DNA of 62,770 bases, counting the filler, from Malassezia furfur (Eukaryota): NCBI GenBank assembly GCA_052055015.1. It is 5 parts of 5 records of this genome, joined end to end, with 100 filler letters (N's around TTAATTAATTAA, not from the genome) between each part and the next. Parts side by side here need not be neighbours in the genome. Positions count along the whole stretch, not along the records: positions 37,971 to 50,412 come from JBQJIT010000336.1; 4 more parts are not named here. One strand, 5' to 3'. How positions within the stretch are numbered: position 1 is the stretch's first letter; each line of letters starts with the position of its first letter. Of the stretch, positions 6,165 through 58,096 are shown piece by piece. A program made the translations under genes and the position numbers. The notes below the pieces were generated by a model. The model was given only the letters and a program-made list of their open reading frames with translations. It was not told the origin of the DNA and did no database searches.

Positions 6165-6442
6165 GTCAAGGTTCTTCTTTGCATCTTTTGCTACACTTGA
6201 ATTTTCTACGGTTTATTTTTTTTTCCTGAAGCCTGTCGGTTCGGAGTATGATGTACCTTTATGAAAAATTAACCGCACAAGTGTACAACAATCTCCGTGA
6301 TGAACCGTCCTCCTCACCTATCACTGTTGTTAAATTTTGGCACGCCCTTGCAGAACCTAGGCTTAGGTTTCTGTGTGCAGCATGTTGTCTGCACTTAGTA
6401 TATAGAATTAACTGTAACATGCTATTGAGAAAAGGGATCTCC

Positions 6443-27017: not shown

Positions 27018-28015
27018 ATGGTTTCCCGCGATGCGTGGGAGGCGCGCCTCGCGCAGGTCCCGGTCTCGAAAAGGTGTGTATCGGACCATGCCTCGCAGAG
27101 GATGAGTCTTTTTTGAAGTGGGAATCTCTCCGAAACACATTGAGGACACTTTTTTTCTTCATTGCTGATCCCACCGCGCGGCCCAGAACCGTACTAACCG
27201 GCAGGGACCTGGACCGCCTCGTGATGGACTACCTTGTTGTCCAGGGCTACAAGTCGGCGGCAGAGACCTTTGGCGAGGAGACGCTGATCGTGCCAGAGAT
27301 GGACATGGCTGAGATGGACGCACGCATCATCGCACGCGACGCACTCCTCCGTGGCGACGTCGCTGCCGCAACTGAGCTCGTGAACGACTTGAATCCGGAG
27401 GTATGTACCCTACGGCGTCGAAAGGAAGAACATCTTCATGCACCACGCTGAGCAGCTCGCTGCCGTGCGGAACAAAAACCTAATCACCATCTTTCGACTG
27501 ATCGACGCCTCTTCTTTTTGAGCAGGACTTACACCCAGATCCTTGATACGAGCCCGCCGCTCTTCTTCCATCTGCAGCAGCTGCGCATGATTGAGCTGCT
27601 GCGGGCGGGGGATGTCGACGCGGCACTGGCCTATGCGGCCGAACACCTGGCCCCGCTCGGTGAAGAGCACCCGCATCTCCTGCACGAGCTGGAGCAGACC
27701 ATGTCGCTCTTTGTGTTTGATATGCAGGCTCCGCAATCGTCGGTGCCGCCGCATGCGGCGCTGCTGTACAGTCCCGCGTACCGGCAGCAGGTCGCTGACG
27801 AGCTGAACGCGGCCATCCTTGCGTCGCAGAGCTACAATGCCTCGGCAAAGCTCGCGCAGCTCCTGCAAATCCTTTCTTCTGGCGAGCGGCTGCTTGGGCC
27901 ATCAGGGCCGGGCAAGACCGAGTTCCCGCACCTCGACGTCCCGGCGCTCCTCGCGCGTTCCGAGCTTGCCGAGGTGGAGGAATCCATGACCGACGATGTA
28001 CATACTGTAGTTTAG
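27018..28015 (+). CDS. GID8: GID/CTLH complex subunit Gid8 (LisH-CTLH-CRA); introns 27074-27204 and 27401-27538
   Basis: MVSRDAWEARLAQVPVSKR|DLDRLVMDYLVVQGYKSAAETF, VNDLNPE|ILDTSPPLFFHLQQLRMIELLR, ELEQTMSLFVF, VADELNAAIL. Confidence 0.9.
27095..27172 (+). ncRNA. Intronic box C/D snoRNA, SNORD79(Z22)-like
   Basis: Box C AGGATGA 27099-27105; guide GTGGGAATCTC 27118-27128 complementary to conserved LSU rRNA GAGAUUCCCAC; D' CCGA 27130-27133; C' TGAGGA; D CTGA 27165-27168. Confidence 0.75.
27414..27509 (+). ncRNA. Intronic dual-guide box C/D snoRNA, U32/SNORD32-like
   Basis: 8-bp terminal stem GGCGTCGA/TCGACGCC; C-like AGGAAGA; guide CATGCACCAC before D' CTGA (SSU GUGGUGCAUG); guide TCACCATCTTTCG before D CTGA (LSU CGAAAGAUGGUGA). 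Confidence 0.85.
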
Positions 28016-28044: not shown

Positions 28045-29256
28045 ATGTCTGTGCCGCCCGCGCTGAAGGACACGGCCGCGTACGTGCAGCGTGCCGACGA
28101 AGTCGCCAATGTCGACCCGGTGGTGTCGTACTGGTGTACGTGGAATGGCTGATGCAGGCAAATATTACGCAGCTCAGCTAGGGATCGCAAAACCGACCAG
28201 CGATGCCGCATCCAAGACTTATCTGCTCGGCCTCATGGACGACCTCGAAACGGTGCGTCGCTGCAACTGACGCAGACCAAGGCCGCTTTGGGAGACAACG
28301 ATGCCGTAACCAACGATACGGCGGGCTATGCCTACTTGGAGAATTTTGCCCTCAATATATTCCTTGGTGCAGACAATGAGGATCGCGAGGGGCGTGCGAC
28401 CAAGTACGTGACATGCTGACGCCAGGGCAACCGCACGCACGTTTTTGGCGGCCGTCCAGTTCCTCGAACTGCTCAACGTTTTTGGGCCGCTGGATTCCGA
28501 CGTACGTGGGTCAACTCACCCCAGATCCAAGGGAAGATTAAGTACGCCAAGTGGAAGGCCGCCCAAATCTCCAAAGCACTGCGCGAAGGCAAAAAACCCG
28601 CGCCGGGCCCCGCGGTGAGCGAGGAGGAAAGTGTGCTTGCGCAGCTGATCCCGCCGCAGGAAACCGACGCCAGCGGCGCCCATGACGCATCAACAAGGTC
28701 TGCCACGCTGGACGCTGTGTCAACACCAGAGGACGCCAAAGAACCTGCGGCACGTCCTAGCACAGACGCTGTTGTGCCATCGCAAGACGCTGTGTTTGCT
28801 TCGGTGCCTACGGTGCCTAGCGATACTGCGCGCACCGCCGCCGATGCGCCGTCGTTCCCTAGCGCGCCCAGCGTTGATGCCGCCGATACACCTCCCTTTC
28901 CCAGCGTACCCAGCTCCGATGCCGCGCATCAAGCCTCTGCGCCCAGCAGCGAGAGCCGCCTGCCGTCCGTGCCGGACGAGGGCAGCGCACCGAGTGCCCC
29001 CGTGCAAGTCATCGCCGCTACGTCGGCACCCTCGGCACCTCCTACCAAGGCTGTACATACGACGCCCTCCGCACCACCGCCGCCTCCTACGGATACACGT
29101 CTAAGCGTGACGGACATCGCGAAAGTGCAAAAGTTCTCGCGGTGGGCGAGCAGCGCCCTGGATTACGAGGATGTGGAGACGGCGCGCGCGCATCTCCGAG
29201 ATGCGCTCCACATTTTGGACAGCGCACGGTCTCCGCCCCACGTGAACCCCACGTGA
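28045..29256 (+). CDS. VTA1: Vta1 (Vps4 cofactor), four 22-23 nt introns
   Basis: YVQRADEVANVDPVVSYW|CKYYAAQLGI, LMDDLE, ADNEDREG, KIKYAKWKAAQISKALREG, C-terminal VSL QKFSRWASSALDYEDVETA. Confidence 0.92.
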
Positions 29257-29319
29257 CGCGCTCGGGCAAAAATCGAGCAAGACGGAGTAAAGTTCCCGTA
29301 CAAACCTTAGAGCATCGCG

Positions 29320-30377
29320 ATGATTGCTAGGACGTCTTTGAACCTGCTGCGTGCAGCCCCGCGTACTGGTATGTGGTATCACTTATGCAGCTTGCGCCCC
29401 GCGTCTTCTGTCGACGTCGGCCGTGCGTCGCAGCTATGCGGATACGATCAAGAACATCTACGTGAACAAGGACTCCAAGGTGATCTGCCAGGGTTTCACC
29501 GGCAAGACGGTACGTATGCCTGCCCTAACACCAGGCCACGTTCCACTGTGAACAGGCGCTTGAGTACGGCACCAAGCTCGTGGGCGGTGTCTCGCCCAAG
29601 AAGGCTGGCTCGGAGCACCTTGGCCTGCCGGTGTTTGGCTCGGTCCGCGAGGCGGTGGACAAGACCAAGCCGCAGGCGTCGGTGATTTACGTGCCCCCGC
29701 CTGGTGCTGCGGACGCGATCATCGAGGCCATCGAGGCCGAGGTGCCCCTCATTGTCGCCATCACCGAGGGCATTCCCCAGAAGGACGAAGTTCGCGTCGC
29801 CAACGTGCTCAAGCAGCAGAGCAAGTCGCGCCTCGTCGGCCCCAACTGCCCCGGTGTGATCAACCCGGAGGGCTGCAAGATCGGTATCATGCCCGGCCAC
29901 ATCCACTCGCCCGGCCGCGTGGGCATTGTGTCGCGCTCGGGTACGCTCACCTACGAGGCGGTGAACCAGACGACCAACGTCGGTCTCGGCCAGTCGCTGT
30001 GTGTGGGTATCGGTGGTGACCCCTACCCCGGCTCGACGACCATCGACCTCGTCAAGCTTTACCTCGAGGACCCCAAGTCCGAGGGTATTGTGATCATTGG
30101 TGAGATTGGTGGCAGCATGGAGGAGGATGCCGCGGAGTACCTGGAGAAGTACAACAAGACCCGCGAGAACCCCAAGCCGGTCGTTGCCTTCATCGCGGGC
30201 CGTACGGCGCCTCCGGGCCGCCGCATGGGCCACGCCGGTGCGATCATCAGCGGCGGCAAGGGCGGTGCGGACGACAAGGTCCGTGCGCTCACCAAGGCCG
30301 GCGCCATCGTCGCCGATAGCCCTGCCATGATCGGCGAGCTGATGCTCAAGGCCTTCAAGGACAAGGGCCTGGCCTAA
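29320..30377 (+). CDS. LSC1: Succinyl-CoA ligase alpha subunit, 2 introns
   Basis: [52 protein letters not shown]. Confidence 0.97.
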
Positions 30378-31570: not shown

Positions 31571-31675
31571 GTCCAAAAAAAAAGTGGATTCCAACCTGCG
31601 TCTGCGCGAGCGCTGACTAAAGCCGCAGAAAAAAAAGTTGCGGTGGGCGCGTGAGCGCCTTCGCTCCAGGCAAAG

Positions 31676-32623: not shown

Positions 32624-33774
32624 CTACCTCGTCGGCAAGTCGCCGAGGTGGATACGACGGCTCAGCGGCGAGGAAGACGTCGGAACATCCATGTAGAACC
32701 GCTTGTATTGGTAAATGCCCTCCTCGTCCTTGACCAGCTCGACGTGCACCTCTCCCTCGGTCCAGGTACCAGGCGCAGTACGGAAGTTAGCGGTGAGGTC
32801 CACCGACGAGATGCCCAGCACATCCTTCGAGCTGCCGACCAGGTCGCCGACGCTGCGCGTAATGCTGCGCAGCTTGCTGGTGATCCACCACGGCTTGGCC
32901 GGTTCCTTGGGCGGCGGCGCCGGCACGGGCACCGCAGATTCGCCGGAACTTTGCTCTTCCCACCAACGGTACACCGCATCGTAGCCATCGAGCACACGCT
33001 CCTTGGTCCAGTGCACGCCATCCAGGAATCCGGTACGTGCCTTTTGCCAAAGACTCAGCGGCGTATCCTTGTCGCGGCCCTCGACAAAGAAGTGCAGGTA
33101 GAGTGTGTCTTTGCCCGTACGAGGGTCAATGACGTGCATCGAAGCCACTGTTTGCGACGGGCGCGTGGGGTGCGACGGCGGGTTCAGCGGCGAATAATCG
33201 CTAAACTCGGTCAGCGACGTCTGGAAATTGTACGGCTTGAGCAGGTAGTCGTGCACCTTGGGGCTGTTTTCAATGATCTTGCATGCCTGTTGGTAGATCA
33301 CCGTAGGGCTGTTCCGCGCAAACAGCTCGCTGGCCAGCGCATAGGTGATGACACCGGTTAGCGCTGCACCAAATCCAATCACCAGCAGGCGGGTCGAGTT
33401 GACCGTAGCACGCGCGACTGGGGTCAGTACAGCAACGTACCTTTTTGTCCGCCACGGAGCTCCTTCCACGACTTGCCCTGACCGGTCCACTTGTCCACAC
33501 GCGAGCTACGCGTACCCTGGGCACCCTCGTAGAGCGCTGTTCCAGCGAGGCCAAGCGAGGTCTGCATACGCTGCGCCTCGGCGAGCTTTTTGTCGTTACG
33601 CAGTAACTTAAGAATTTCTTCCTTCTCCCGCTCGAAGCGCGCATCGTCCTCGGCGCTCGAGGGGCTCGGCTGCGATGCAAAATTCCGAGAGAGGGGAGCA
33701 ACGGGGCATCCGAGGATCGGCTGGCGTGGGACGGCGCGCAGCCATCCCACGCGGCGCATCGCGAAGCTGGCCAT
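32624..33774 (-). CDS. TIM21: Mitochondrial import protein Tim21, 1 intron
   Basis: Presequence; WKELRGGQK|VARAT...TM helix...SELFARNSPT; LHFFVEG; GEVHVELVK...YQYKRFYMDVP. Confidence 0.75.
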
Positions 33775-33877
33775 CGATCGTGTACGAAGGAGGCTCCGGA
33801 GCCCGACGTGCGGTTGTCACGTGTTCCCAAGGAGGAGCACGGACCTATCCGGGGTCGTGGCAGAGGAGACCATCACG

Positions 33878-34278
33878 ATGGGGATGAAACACAAGGAGTA
33901 TCTGCAGTCGCAATACATCTATGGGTGCGCAAAGTGCAAGACTCATTTGACGACGCTCGAGGCACTCATCAGTAAGGTATGGTTCGACCCCCGCTCACGC
34001 GCAGGAATTCAACGGCCAAATGGGACGCGCGTACCTCTTCGATAAGGTGGTCAACGTTGACCTTGGCGAAGCAGACGACCGGCATATGCGCACAGGAAAG
34101 CACACGGTGCGCGATGTGGCCTGCTCGCGATGCAAATCCTATTTGGGTTGGAAATATGTACGTGTTGTGTGCGCAGGATACGGCGCTGACACGGTAGGAT
34201 CGCGCCTTTGTCTCGGCGGAAAAGTACAAAGAAGGCAAGTTTATACTAGAAATTACGCTGCTGGACGATGTGGTGTAG
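33878..34278 (+). CDS. MOH1: Yippee/Moh1-family protein, 2 introns
   Basis: MGMKHKEYL..IYGCAKCKTHL..LISK|EFNGQMGRAYLF..MRTGKHTVRDVACSRC..LGWKY|..KYKEGKFILE. Confidence 0.9.
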
Positions 34279-34951
34279 GGCGTCGATGGGTGCCCGGCGA
34301 TACGCCGTCGACGGTATGCGCGCAGCCCATAGAATGCGCTAGCCTAGATACCCCTGGACTGCACTAGCTGTCTCTCTATACCAAGTCTGCGATTGTGTGC
34401 AGCGAACGGCCCTACACATGCATGGGGCCGGCCATGTCCGACGCCTCTGCACGCCCTGCTGTCATGGGAGTGCTGCACGGAGCAGGGCTATCGGGCTGCA
34501 GACACCCGGGTGGGGTTGCCACAACGGTGTGCGCACATCTCGCCCTGCATTTCCTCCCCCACACACCGACTGGCGCAGCTTGACAGCACCGCGGACGCCC
34601 GCGCGGTGGCTGGTGACGCGTTGCAGGGGACAAATCACATCGATGCGTTTGACGTGTGGATCACGTCGCTATCGTGTCGCCTGTTTGTTTTGCTGCACCG
34701 CCAACATACACCGGCAGTGCAAGGGGCGCGCCACTGCGCGGGTTCGCCACAGGCCAAGACCTGCGGAGGCACAAAATCCGCGCACCGATTTGCCCGATAT
34801 CTGCAGGACGGCATCGATGTAAATAAGTAAATGTACGATTCAGTACCCCTCACAGACATCCGGGGATTGATTGGGCAATTCATTATGGAGCAAAAACGCC
34901 CAGCCGACTGCGAAGACGCCGCGTTTACAAAACACGAAAGGCGTCCGGGAG

Positions 34952-34957
34952 TATATA
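34952..34957 (+). promoter_or_regulatory. TATA-like box upstream of the secreted DPBB gene
   Basis: TATATA about 140 nt upstream of ATG 35093, followed by a CT-rich leader; an ATTGG (CCAAT) lies near 34870. Confidence 0.45.
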
Positions 34958-35092
34958 GGGGGCCGGCGCCGCCAGCCACGACCCGCACCGCCTCCCCCAT
35001 TCAATTCGTCGAAGAGCGCCAGTCGCTTGACCTTTCCCCTTTTCAACACCCTCACGACCTCCGCTAAACGACTCAAACTCACCTATATCGAA

Positions 35093-35731: not shown

Positions 35732-36213
35732 AAAACACGGCGCTACTTTTCAAACCTTCGACGACTATGAAACGCACGACAATATAATTGGGGCGAGCAT
35801 TCTGGCAATGTTTGCATCATGTTTCTGTTTCTTGTTGGCCAAGCCGGACTTGGCCCTTTTTGCTTGAATTGGCGAGCGCGATGCCTTTTTATCTAGACTC
35901 TGTTTTGCGCGCTTGCTCTGTTGCGCTATAGGTTCTGCTGGTTTCGGATCCTATAGACCTTTATCCAGTTTATTTTTTTTTTAACTCCGACGGACTCGAG
36001 CGGGTCGAGTCGCGCGCGCATCGATAGGCCTTTGTGCTTGGCACGCACGCGTGCGCACCGGGCCCCGGGTGGGTTTAGTAAGTGGAGGACCGATAAAGTC
36101 GGTGCGCGTGCAGGGTACGCCGCGGGCCTGGGGCAGGTTCCAAGTGCCCATCGCTACGTTCCTGACGAGCGAGCGACGCCAGTGGGGACTCGGGCCAGAT
36201 TGTGAGCGAGACG

Positions 36214-42126: not shown

Positions 42127-42226
42127 GGCCGCAAGTTGTGGAGGTGGAGCCAACGGCCAGAAAATAAACGAAGTGATTCGACGCTCTAATCGTAACTCGG
42201 CGGGCGCTTGCCCAACCCAGACCTAT

Positions 42227-42515
42227 ACCTGTCATGGGTGCAACGAAGGAATGAATTCTCCTGTGGCGCGCCCCACGCAATGTTAGCCGTTCCTATGGAT
42301 GATTGAGGTTGGCTGGCGCACTAGCGTGCTTCAAAGCATGTTGGTCCCAGCTGTAAACGGGGGAGACTAAGGAGCCGTTCTGCGGCTTGTAGGATCAGTC
42401 GGTTCTGCCGAGCACTCCACTCAACCGACCTCAGTCGCACGTATTCGTAGGGCTTTCGGTAAGCAGGGAGCACCTAGCTTGAAAGCGCGCCCAGGCCTCG
42501 TGAGGATTCAAACTG
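42227..42515 (+). ncRNA. Putative signal recognition particle (SRP) RNA
   Basis: 5' UGU hairpin followed by CGAAG; long-range helices 42252-60/42502-10, 42261-71/42485-94 and 42321-30/42469-77; TAGG...AGCAG helix-8-like motif 42448-42466; T9 immediately downstream. Confidence 0.65.
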
Positions 42516-42524
42516 TTTTTTTTT
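42516..42524 (+). terminator. Oligo(T)9 RNA polymerase III terminator
   Basis: T9 directly after the closing helix of the putative SRP RNA. Confidence 0.55.
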
Positions 42525-42551
42525 GCCACGTGCGCTTGACTCAGATTGGTA

Positions 42552-43670
42552 ATGCTTTCGGCCTGGAGGGCGAGCATCCGTGCGCCAGGCTGCCGCACGT
42601 TGGCTGCACGCCCTACGTTTTGTACTAGCGCCATCCAACGAAGTGCATGGCCTACGCCACCGCGCACCTCGGATGTGAGCGTGAACACGTCAGGACCCGT
42701 CTCGGTGGCGAGCCTAACACGGCAGATGGCTGAAAAGAAACCCATCGTGTGCATCACTGCCTACGACTATCCCACCGGCCTGGCGGTGCGTGCCGCCGGC
42801 GCAGATATCTGCCTTGTGGGTGACTCATTAGCGAATGTTGCCCTGGGACATTCGTCCACCCGGTGCCTCACGCTCGAGGCCATGATCCACCACAGCACTG
42901 CCGTCCGTGACGCTATCCGGGCGAACGACTTGAGATACGACCCCTTATGTCCCCCAGAACCCCTTCTCGTCGTGGATATGCCATTTGGAACATGTGAGGT
43001 TTCTGTCGAAGAGGCAACGCGCAACGTGCTGCGTGTGGTGCAAGCGACGCAAGCACAAGCCGTCAAAATTGAAGGCTCGCGTGAGCTGGTGCCCCTCGTG
43101 GAGAAGCTCTCGACGTATGGGATTTCGGTCATGGCCCATGTCGGCTTACAGCCGCAGCGTTTTGGTGACGCTGCCTCACTCCGTGTTCAGGCCGCACGCG
43201 CGGACAGTGCCTTCCAATTGCTCGAGGACGTGCTTGCGCTGCAAGAAGCAGGCAGTTTTGCGATCCTGCTCGAGTGTGTTCCGTCGCGCGTGGCAGAAAC
43301 GATTAGCGAGCACGTCTCGATCCCGATCATTGGGATTGGCGCAGGGCCTCATACGCATGGCCAGGTGCTAGTGGGCAGCGACCTGGTGGCCGATCTCGAG
43401 AGCCCTGCACATGTGTCGGCAGCGTTGCGTACAGAGCCCCAGGAAGTGCGCGGCGTGGATACACCAACCGAGTGGCCGGCGCCGCCCAAGTTTGTGCGCT
43501 CGTTTGCTCCTATGAGTTTGGGCGCTCTACGTGTCCAGGCGTTCCGTGCATTTGCCGAAGCAGTGCGTGCGCGCTCTTTCCCCGAAGTTACCCGCGAAGC
43601 GTACCGCATCAAGTCGGAGGAATTGGCCAAATTCCGCGCGATGTTGGCGGCGCGTCATAGCTCCGAATGA
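42552..43670 (+). CDS. ECM31: Ketopantoate hydroxymethyltransferase (PanB)
   Basis: CITAYDY, LVGDSLANVALG, VVDMPFG, AVKIEG, MAHVGLQPQ, LECVP, IGIGAG, PKFVR. Confidence 0.95.
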   Translation: MLSAWRASIRAPGCRTLAARPTFCTSAIQRSAWPTPPRTSDVSVNTSGPVSVASLTRQMAEKKPIVCITAYDYPTGLAVRAAGADICLVGDSLANVALGHSSTRCLTLEAMIHHSTAVRDAIRANDLRYDPLCPPEPLLVVDMPFGTCEVSVEEATRNVLRVVQATQAQAVKIEGSRELVPLVEKLSTYGISVMAHVGLQPQRFGDAASLRVQAARADSAFQLLEDVLALQEAGSFAILLECVPSRVAETISEHVSIPIIGIGAGPHTHGQVLVGSDLVADLESPAHVSAALRTEPQEVRGVDTPTEWPAPPKFVRSFAPMSLGALRVQAFRAFAEAVRARSFPEVTREAYRIKSEELAKFRAMLAARHSSE

Positions 43671-55006: not shown

Positions 55007-55226
55007 AGGGCACAAGAAGGACAGGGGGTGAAGACGACGCCCACCCCCGGTCTCTGCTTTAACGGCGCCGAGCCATTGCGCCACGTGGCAAGATTGGCTC
55101 AACCCCGCACGAATTAGACGCCGATGCGGGGGACTAAAACCGTCGCCGCCCGAACTCGCGAGAATGTGTGTCTAGTGAATACACAGGAACTACCACATTA
55201 TTCACGAGACAGAAAGCAGTGCAAGC

Positions 55227-56031
55227 TCACTGCAGGATCTTCTTGTCAACGACCTTGCCGTCCGAGTCGATCTTGTACACGATCGGGACACCGGTCGCGA
55301 GCTCAGTCGAGATGATCTGCTCAGGCGTCATGTTCTCGAGCGCCATGATAACAGCACGCAGCGAGTTACCGTGGGCAGCAACAAGAACCGACTCGCCCTT
55401 CTCGACCAGCGGCTTAATTTCCTTGTTAAAGAACGGCAGCACACGGTCAGCCGTGAGCTTCAGCGACTCGCCACCAGGCGGGCGCACGTCGAACGAGCGG
55501 CGCCAGGTGTGAACCTGCTCCTCGCCGAACTTGGCACGAGCATCGTCCTTGTTCAGGCCAGTAAGCTCGCCGTAGTCACGCTCGTTCAGCGCCTGGTCCT
55601 TGACGACAGGAATGCCCTCCTGGCCAATGGCCTTGAGCTGGATGTCCAGCGTCTTCTGGGCACGCTGGAGAGCAGAGGTGAAGGCAATGCTGTGGCAGTG
55701 TTAGCACGAGTCAACCACATCGTGAAGTACGTACTTGAAGTTGGTCTGGAGGAAGAAACGGAAGGGCGAGTCAGTACAAGCTCTTTTCGACGCAAAATAC
55801 GTACGTATCCATACTTCTTGAGCTCCTCAGCACCCTTGAGTGCCTCCTCACGACCCTGCTCGGTCAGGTCGGGGTCCTTCCAGCCGGTGAACTGCGGTTA
55901 GCGGGCCAGAAAACCAAGGGATACCCACGAGGTTCTTCTTGTTCCATTCGGACTGGCCGTGACGAGTGAGGACGAGAGTTCTTCGAGGTTAGCAGGCTGT
56001 TACCCCAGAGCTGCACCACGTACCCAACCAT
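55227..56031 (-). CDS. GPM1: 2,3-BPG-dependent phosphoglycerate mutase, 4 introns
   Basis: [68 protein letters not shown]. Confidence 0.95.
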
Positions 56032-56342
56032 GGTCTATGCGTTAGGTAAAACCCCGGATCCCGCACGGTCAGGTAGTCCGGCACCGGTTGCCCACGTGGG
56101 TGATCGGAAGAAGCCGGGGATAGGGCTGAACCTGAGCGCACGTGACATTGTGGAGAGACACACACTGCAGTTATCTGATAGAGAATGGACCCGGCCTGCG
56201 CAGGAAAAACTTGGCTAGGAAGGTCGAGCGCGATCTTCGTCTAGATTCTCAACCTATACTGTGGCGGAAGAGAGGCGTGAACTGGCAGAAACGGAGTTCA
56301 TTCAGCAAGCAAACTGTATGAACAAGCGTTCGAGCGTTCGAG

Positions 56343-58096
56343 ATGGCGCCCAGCTTGGAAATACCTGGGGTACGTCGTTCGTGCTGTGCCACTAATACGC
56401 AGAACAATTTTGTCGAGTTCACCAAAGAAGGTGATGCTCAGCAGTTGGTGAAGAATGCACTGCTGTGTTCCCGTCTGAATGAATCTCTCCAGTCTTCAAG
56501 GCGTCTGGAAAATGTGTCTTGGCGAATGTGGTACAAGCAGCATCGCTCTGACAAGGTGAGCGCCACATTTTTTTTCCGTGCGGAAATGCTAACCGTCAGT
56601 CATTGAACCTGGAGCGGCGAAAGCCTGCGTTCTTGAATGCAGAGATTGATGTGACGAACATTTCGCCATTGCGGACGCTGGACGAACATGTCTTGACCAA
56701 CGCCCTGAGCTCGTCCATGGACGTGGATATGCTGCACGGCAATCAGACCGCGCAAACCCTCCCTTTTCTTGCGGGCAGCACAGGCGTGAATCAATGGCCG
56801 AACATCTCGGCATTGAACGATACCAAGCATTTCCACGGTGTTTTCCAAAACACGCAGCCACCGGAACAGCACGTGTCGCCGGATATGCTCCAGCTATTTC
56901 CTGCCCCGCCGAACGAGCAATTCTGTGGCATTCCGGGCTGTTCGTACGTGGACAATGGCAACAGCTTGTTGCGGAATGCTCTTGGTATCTCGGGTGAGAC
57001 GCAAGACACTTCTCAAAAGGAGGAACAGGACGGGTACAACAACTTCGCGGGCGCGGCTCCCCCTGCGCCATCGTCTGGCCAAAACGAGGGACACCCGCAC
57101 CTAAACGAGGTCGATTCGACTCCTACAACACCTCGGCGGCGATCAGAGGTATCCATGGATGCTACGCCTGGATCGTCTGCCCCCACCGACGACGTTCCCA
57201 CCTGCAGTAACTGTGGGACGCATAATACCCCGTTGTGGAGACGAAACCATGACACGCTCCTCCTTTGCAATGCATGCGGTCTGTACCTCAAGATTCACAA
57301 AACGCATCGCCCATTGCTGCTGCGCCAGCGTCAGCAAATTTGCAACGCTTCCCGCGCCAATGGACAAGATCGTGGCTCGCGCTCGGCCAATGTGACCAGC
57401 TGTACAAACTGTGGCACGCGTGTGACACCGTTGTGGCGCAAGGACGACAATGGCGCAATGCTATGTAACGCGTGTGGGCTTTACTTCAAGCTACACCGCG
57501 AGCACAGGCCACCTAGGTACCGTGCGGACATTATCCGCAAGCGTGCTCGGTACGACCCGCGACAACGCACCAACAGCGATGACGGACAAGCGTCGCCGCG
57601 CTCGGAGCCTATCTCGCCCGCACAGAGTACGCCCCAGAGCATGGGCTATGCCGGCCCCTCTAGTGCGGGCGCCATGCTGCAGTCACGGGATACGACATCA
57701 GACTCGCCCACCGTAAAACGGCACTCGACGCCTTCGTTGCTTCCGCAAGAGAGTTGCAGCCCCGTACAGGACGCCAGTCGGTTCCTGAGTTCCAGTCAGG
57801 GCCCATTGGCGGCCGAGCTTGCGTCGTTGGCGTGCTGTGGCAACGACGCATGTACCGGCCCGATCCTAATGAACGACGGTGCGCCCGAGTTCGTGGAGAA
57901 TCCGCACGAGTACCACATGCACGACCAGCCCCACTTGATGTTCGGCATGGACTTCAATATGGAATCCATTATGCGGCCCACTCACGGTCATGTGAATCGG
58001 CACTCGCTATGGCCCGTATACCAGTCCACGGAAATGTATCCCCAGCCGGAGAACAAGGGGGATCCCAATTCTAGTGTATCTCTACCGCTGCACTAA
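56343..58096 (+). CDS. GATA transcription factor with DUF1752-like N-terminus and two zinc fingers (AreA/Nit2-like)
   Basis: RRLENVSWRMW; CSNCGTHNTPLWRR...CNACGLY; CTNCGTRVTPLWRK...CNACGLYFKLH..RP; 2 introns near the 5' end. Confidence 0.85.

Follow-up and report, generated by a model that had tools for sequence, protein, structure and literature searches.

SRP RNA is essential and universal, and the closest described relatives of the element reported here are the basidiomycete SRP RNAs characterized by Dumesic et al. (2015). According to the parts of that paper drawn on here, these RNAs had eluded computational detection (PMC4605306). [quoted passage not shown] Basidiomycete SRP RNAs lack the Alu helices 3 and 4 and keep the UGUNR motif in a loop, and their helix 8 retains the A-C pair, which is invariant, and the G next to it (both from the same sections of PMC4605306). 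In C. neoformans, a 17-nt stem-loop is inserted in helix 8's asymmetric loop. The Malassezia rows of Table S4 of that paper, for M. globosa and M. sympodialis, each give one inserted helix in helix 8 and a symmetric loop free of any 1-nt insertion. The excerpted text further describes the 5e loop as diverse in fungi and the helix 6 loop as having a conserved A at its third position (PMC4605306). In human SRP, adenosines of the short strand touch helix 6, and according to reviews every archaeal and eukaryotic SRP RNA has helix 8 clamped to the helix 6 loop by the fourth-position A of the helix-8 apical loop. A non-canonical helix 8 in Basidiomycota, and the presence of this class in the genus Malassezia, have been known since 2015.

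In this study, we analyzed a 62,770-nt stretch of Malassezia furfur DNA, filler included (the window), and focused on the gap between a Rim13-like gene and ECM31. The sequence and the coordinates given for this region by the first-pass annotation, an earlier reading of the same DNA, match the window. The flanking genes it had named were also recovered: a gene on the - strand encodes a Rim13-like protein of 746 residues with calpain (Peptidase_C2) and MIT domains (start codon 42124-42126), and a gene on the + strand encodes ketopantoate hydroxymethyltransferase (PanB), the ECM31 product. The gap between them measures 425 nt (42127-42551), as had been reported. Its description as far longer than most spacers did not hold, since in a crude ORF map of the window (at least 150 codons) it comes 12th in size among 34 gaps and 5th among the 9 divergent ones, which is the median divergent size.

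A search with the ECM31 product gave 3962 proteins at E<=1e-30 among 8000 scored. Among the best 120 listed, identity is 94% to a protein recorded under M. furfur and 91% to an M. brasiliensis protein, and the remaining Malassezia and Ustilaginomycotina relatives reach at most 69%. By these protein identities, the source yeast is placed within the M. furfur group and is not among the two Malassezia species of the published SRP RNA table. The basidiomycete SRP model is applicable here because the closest matches of ECM31 are from Malassezia.

The start codon of ECM31 was set at 42552, because an N-terminal presequence is common to seven relatives. It lies only 27 nt past a run of nine T residues (T9), which means that the element described below must share DNA with a Pol II promoter or leader. 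The M. furfur ECM31 entry in the database (P0002, 328 aa) begins 44 residues inside the window ORF (42552-42683), and the upstream presequence of seven other relatives carries a conserved SAW motif. Since this presequence is shared by seven relatives, the database entry may have been annotated with too short an N-terminus.

We found that the gap contains a candidate SRP RNA gene. With a probability of roughly 80%, the region from 42227 to T9 is where this Malassezia encodes its SRP RNA, and the RNA is of the basidiomycete type of Dumesic et al. (2015). Its features are as follows, with RNA position 1 set at window position 42227 and P denoting ensemble probability.

42227..42519, + strand: candidate SRP RNA of ~290 nt; the predicted 5' end is the A at the base of the first hairpin, and the predicted 3' end falls in the T run
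42227..42239, + strand: helix 2 hairpin with the UGUNR motif UGUCA (42230-42234); RNA 1-4/10-13, mean P 0.47
42252..42309, + strand: helix 5, 5' strand; RNA 26-83, pairing with 42428-42510
42311..42352, + strand: helix-6-like hairpin; RNA 85-90/121-126 and 94-104/109-119, P 0.86 and 0.98
42358..42427, + strand: predicted helix 8; RNA 132-201, constrained fold as good as the MFE
42372..42388, + strand: inserted 17-nt stem-loop; RNA 146-162, P 0.85-0.98
42395..42398, + strand: symmetric loop, 5' strand UCAG; P(unpaired) 1.00 for A171 and 0.87 for G172
42399..42411, + strand: helix-8 apical hairpin UCGG(U)-UCU-(G)CCGA; P 0.57-0.64
42412..42415, + strand: symmetric loop, 3' strand GCAC; P(unpaired) 0.83 for G186, 0.84 for C187 and 0.99 for A188
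42419..42419, + strand: asymmetric loop, short (3') strand, the single A193; P(unpaired) 0.99
42428..42510, + strand: helix 5, 3' strand; RNA 202-284, of which RNA 243-258 forms a side loop of 16 nt
42448..42466, + strand: UAGG-GCUUUCGGU-AAGCAG, formerly read as helix 8, reassigned to the helix 5 3' strand, where it pairs with RNA 55-74
42516..42524, + strand: T9 run, predicted Pol III terminator; SRP RNAs finish in a U tract

The first-pass annotation had proposed the same identity with a different interior. We found that SRP RNA of the basidiomycete type is the best-supported reading, and that most of the internal anatomy proposed earlier has to be replaced. The points that support this identity are the UGUNR 5' hairpin, the long helix 5, T9 and a near-canonical helix 8 with one 17-nt insertion.

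At the 5' end, the hairpin at 42227..42239 is the sole paired NNN-TGTNATG-NNN hairpin of the window, and the ACC/GGU stem that had been noted there is present in the ensemble (mean P 0.47 for 1-4/10-13). There are no more hairpins between it and helix 5, and the candidate is without helices 3 and 4. Helix 5 is built of the segments 26-33/277-284, 34-37/266-269, 39-45/259-265, 46-48/240-242, 55-58/236-239, 60-63/231-234, 65-74/217-226 and 75-83/202-210. The segment probabilities are 0.69-0.90, which bears out the two outer long-range helices proposed earlier. The candidate sequence offers ten arrangements of the canonical 5e type, but none of them lines up in register with this rod.

At the far end of the rod, the hairpin formed by RNA 85-126 and the arm formed by RNA 132-201 make a three-way junction. 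The AGCCG/CGGCU hairpin that had been listed in the earlier fold is strongly represented in the ensemble (P 0.94). The loop of the helix-6-like hairpin is UCAA (42331-42334). It has A at the third position and U rather than G at the first, and is not GNAR.

The arm at RNA 132-201 is the predicted helix 8. When this helix was enforced with its loop bases single-stranded, the energy was -112.5 kcal/mol, the same as that of the MFE fold without constraints. Its basal stems are 132-134/199-201 and 137-139/194-196, followed by an asymmetric loop whose long strand (RNA 140-165) holds one 17-nt stem-loop, and by a middle stem of 3 bp (166-168/190-192). The first-pass annotation had two extra stem-loops here, and the remapped fold has one insertion. 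Between the 3-bp middle stem and the 4-bp apical stem (173-176/182-185) lies a 4x4 symmetric loop, in which A171 is opposite C187 and G172 is opposite G186. This model places the predicted SRP54-binding loop at 42395-42398/42412-42415, and not at 42448-42466.

The apical stem closes on a loop that can be read as UCU or UUCUG. No adenosine is present in the helix-8 apical hairpin (RNA 174-184), and the conserved fourth-position A of a GNRA/GRRA loop is absent. The apical loop is not GNRA because the hairpin has no adenosine at all. A non-GNRA helix-8 loop had been claimed before, and this part of the claim survives for a different hairpin (42399-42411) from the one that had been assigned.

The inserted hairpin (42377-42383) and the apical hairpin (42402-42408) have the heptamer GTTCTGC in common, and the stem pairs around it are swapped (CCG..CGG in one, CGG..CCG in the other). 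This shared heptamer with swapped stems therefore suggests that one hairpin is a duplicate of the other. A further step, that the 17-nt hairpin duplicates the apical hairpin and takes over or reshapes the packing of helix 6 against helix 8 together with an enlarged Srp54 M domain, is speculative and in our estimate rather unlikely. The module GUAGG-N16-GAGCAC also occurs twice, at 42389-42415 (RNA 163-189, distal helix 8) and at 42447-42473 (RNA 221-247, 3' strand of helix 5), and both copies hold an internal UCGGU. This likeness is weak and may be due to chance, because the repeat search missed it. The second copy could be left over from the hairpin duplication.

At the 3' end, we located T9 at 42516-42524, in agreement with the earlier report of a T run after the element. 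It is one of only 4 runs of T or A of at least nine in the window. The other long homopolymer runs are T9 at 6216-6224, T10 at 35973-35982 and A9 at 31575-31583, none with an Rfam match; the T9 run at 6216-6224 sits in a convergent gap of 40% GC. Read from the DNA, the candidate 5' end is a purine, the A with which the stem of the first hairpin starts. Scans of the window with A-box and B-box consensus motifs returned 293 and 216 matches, which is chance level, and neither a TATA box nor an A/B box stands out for the candidate.

The extensive folding of the + strand that had been reported was reproduced. The MFE of -112.5 kcal/mol corresponds to a z score of -1.96, and 11/200 shuffles folded as well; in a second shuffle set, 20/500 matched it. 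Folding of the - strand gave a z score of +0.07, with 104/200 shuffles as good, showing that the fold is strand-specific. The excess of the + strand MFE over shuffles is modest, with z at only about -2, and the GC-corrected folding energy is equalled by 47/1136 genomic tiles. The rod stands out further: the optimal fold has 47 pairs between the first 30% and the last 30% of the RNA, a value reached by 4/500 dinucleotide shuffles and by 10/1136 window tiles of the same length on both strands.

We also searched the window with structural descriptors. A four-part descriptor (UGUNR hairpin, T5 at 230-340 nt, closing helix of at least 8 bp, AGG..AGCA) matched only at this locus, with 0.03 matches per shuffled window, and a version with three of these features was present in 23/200 shuffled windows. 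A descriptor for helix 8 (stem of 3 bp, 4x4 loop NNAG/GCAN, at least 3 bp in the distal stem, loop of 3-7) had 8 matches in the real window, compared with 3.3 per random window. Only the match at 42397 has a hairpin upstream and a T run downstream, a context that 1/100 random windows also yielded. The p-values of these descriptors are optimistic, because the descriptors were written after the candidate had been seen; the rod statistic is independent of them.

The first-pass annotation had suggested that standard models may miss the element, which is what we observed. Rfam 15 gave 0 matches over the whole window at gathering thresholds and no SRP family over the whole window at E<=5. At E<=10, on regions of 326-551 nt, there was no SRP-family match, and the sole match was CRISPR-DR9, a chance match whose 16.1 bits fall short of the gathering score of 45. 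A metagenome scan with a degenerate 20-mer from the UAGG...AAGCAG element, which has since been reassigned to helix 5, returned 45 loci, all 45 unrelated, as judged by no blastn similarity and no hairpin or T-run context. A scan of genome contigs with the Rim13-like protein found 0 relatives, and a DNA scan of genome contigs with a pattern of the 5' domain gave 3 matches, bacterial and due to chance. For three C. neoformans SRP RNA oligos (Table S3), the summed local alignment score was 44, which 1558/4166 tiles (37%) equalled. A collinear likeness to these oligos that had been seen by eye was dropped, with its score at background.

The evidence above has to be weighed against three other explanations. 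One keeps the SRP identity and the fold of the first-pass annotation, with helix 8 at 42448-42466 (UAGG-GC-UUUCG-GU-AAGCAG), stem-loops at 42372-88 and 42398-429, and helix 6 at 42341-70. Every base pair listed in that fold is a standard pair, and the gap from UAGG to AGCA is exactly 10 nt, the spacing of canonical helix 8; forcing this element open costs only 5 kcal/mol. However, with all of its helices enforced, the earlier fold reached -89.0 compared with -112.5 kcal/mol, which is 23.5 kcal/mol worse, and it was rejected as a whole. Three of its helices (CUAG-C-GUGCU/AGCACCUAG, UUGGUC/GACUAA and GUCGGUU/AACCGAC) are missing among the helices at P>0.3, because they are outcompeted by longer alternatives: 94-104/109-119 (11 bp, P 0.98), 74-85/200-211 (12 bp, 0.89) and 65-74/217-226 (10 bp, 0.76). 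The element that had been read as the SRP54 site is unpaired with a probability of just 0.03-0.19, and as a helix 8 it would have an apical stem of just 2 bp and a 3' strand of 5 nt, and would lack proper middle and basal stems. The alternative helix 8 (42358-42427) is iso-energetic with the MFE, and the Malassezia rows of Table S4 (PMC4605306) show no symmetric-loop insertion and one inserted helix instead of two. We give the earlier fold hardly any credence.

The two others set the SRP identity aside. The gap may hold no RNA gene at all and consist of a promoter shared by the two divergent genes, RIM13-like and ECM31, together with the leader of ECM31, with T9 as promoter poly(dT) and the folds and motifs due to chance. 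The divergent gene order, the median size of the gap among the divergent gaps, and an ECM31 ATG (42552) just 27 nt past the T run, with its presequence conserved in seven relatives, all suit this explanation, as do an MFE z score of just -2, the frequency of the three-feature descriptor in shuffled windows and the lack of an Rfam match. Yet it would leave to chance several independent SRP-specific features that appear in the correct order and spacing, namely the UGUNR hairpin, the 47-pair rod, the symmetric loop, the single-A strand, the 17-nt insertion and T9, and the strand-specific fold also speaks against it; we consider it improbable. A structured non-coding RNA of another kind with a mere resemblance to SRP RNA, for example a different Pol III transcript or a regulatory ECM31 leader, would explain the rod-like, strand-specific fold and the T-run end, and it would agree with the silence of the SRP covariance models, the non-GNRA loops and the missing 5e motif. 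Against it, no other Rfam family fits, CRISPR-DR9 being a chance match, and the candidate bears hallmarks of SRP: UGUNR in its 5' hairpin, and an A-C/G-G symmetric loop together with a short strand of one A. This makes an RNA of another kind very improbable.

Beyond the observed sequence features, energetics and rarity, we infer the transcription, the ends, the protein binding and the function of the candidate SRP RNA. RNA polymerase III would transcribe about 290 nt from near 42227 and halt in T9. [quoted passage not shown] In the apical S domain, the helix-6-like hairpin would presumably serve Srp19/Sec65, and helix 8 would presumably be bound by the M domain of Srp54.

Elsewhere in the window, we observed sub-threshold matches at 27415-27508 (+) to two C/D-box snoRNA families, snoZ221_snoR21b (26.8 bits, E 0.19) and snoZ196 (30.1 bits, E 1.6). 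This segment has the terminal inverted repeat GGCGTCGA...TCGACGCC, with CTGA immediately ahead of the 3' arm, and a GTATGT at 27402 could be a 5' splice site. The segment may encode a C/D snoRNA within an intron. In the crude map, three gaps (33362-35092, 55007-56716 and 28212-29495), 1.3-1.7 kb in size, contain no ATG-started ORF of at least 150 codons; genes that are short or have introns, or non-coding RNAs, may lie there.

Since Rfam 15 has no SRP match here at E<=10, a pipeline based on Rfam would leave this locus unannotated. The position and the domain map fill this annotation gap for a skin yeast of the M. furfur group, and the coordinates, the one-insertion helix 8 and the non-GNRA loop provide a template for a basidiomycete SRP model. 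Lineage-specific SRP features were raised by the 2015 authors, in the excerpted text, as possible antifungal targets (PMC4605306). The only details at this locus that may be new are the adenosine-free helix-8 loop and the GUUCUGC common to the inserted and apical hairpins.

Compared with the SRP families of Rfam, including Fungi_SRP (RF01502), the candidate has a similar architecture, with a UGUNR hairpin, helix 5 and an S domain, and a predicted Pol III terminator. It matches none of these models, as is expected for basidiomycetes from the available sections of PMC4605306, but this absence of a match lends the candidate no support. Its helix 8 resembles that of bacteria, archaea and metazoans in the 4x4 loop with A-C and G-G/A, the apical stem of 3-4 bp and the middle stem of 3 bp, and it shares with canonical helix 8 an asymmetric loop with an adenosine short 3' strand. 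Unlike canonical helix 8, the candidate bears a 17-nt hairpin on the long strand, and its loop is UCU/UUCUG instead of GNRA/GRRA, and the adenosine that touches the helix-6 loop is therefore missing. U173, which pairs with A185, sits at the position of the G of canonical NAGG.

The candidate differs from the Malassezia RNAs of the published table in species, and its structural identity with them is deduced from one table row. The adenosine-free apical loop and the absence of a canonical 5e motif are seen in the candidate, and the excerpted text of PMC4605306 mentions neither for Malassezia. With the basidiomycete SRP RNAs described there, those listed for M. globosa and M. sympodialis in particular, it would share a length of ~280-300 nt, a purine start, a poly-U end and helices 5, 6 and 8. 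With these RNAs it also shares the lack of helices 3 and 4, the UGUNR loop, the A-C pair with the adjacent G and the invisibility to Rfam. Whereas the earlier fold, with its two extra stem-loops and 5-nt 3' strand, does not fit that description, the remapped fold fits every point of the basidiomycete type as given in the consulted sections of Dumesic et al. (2015).
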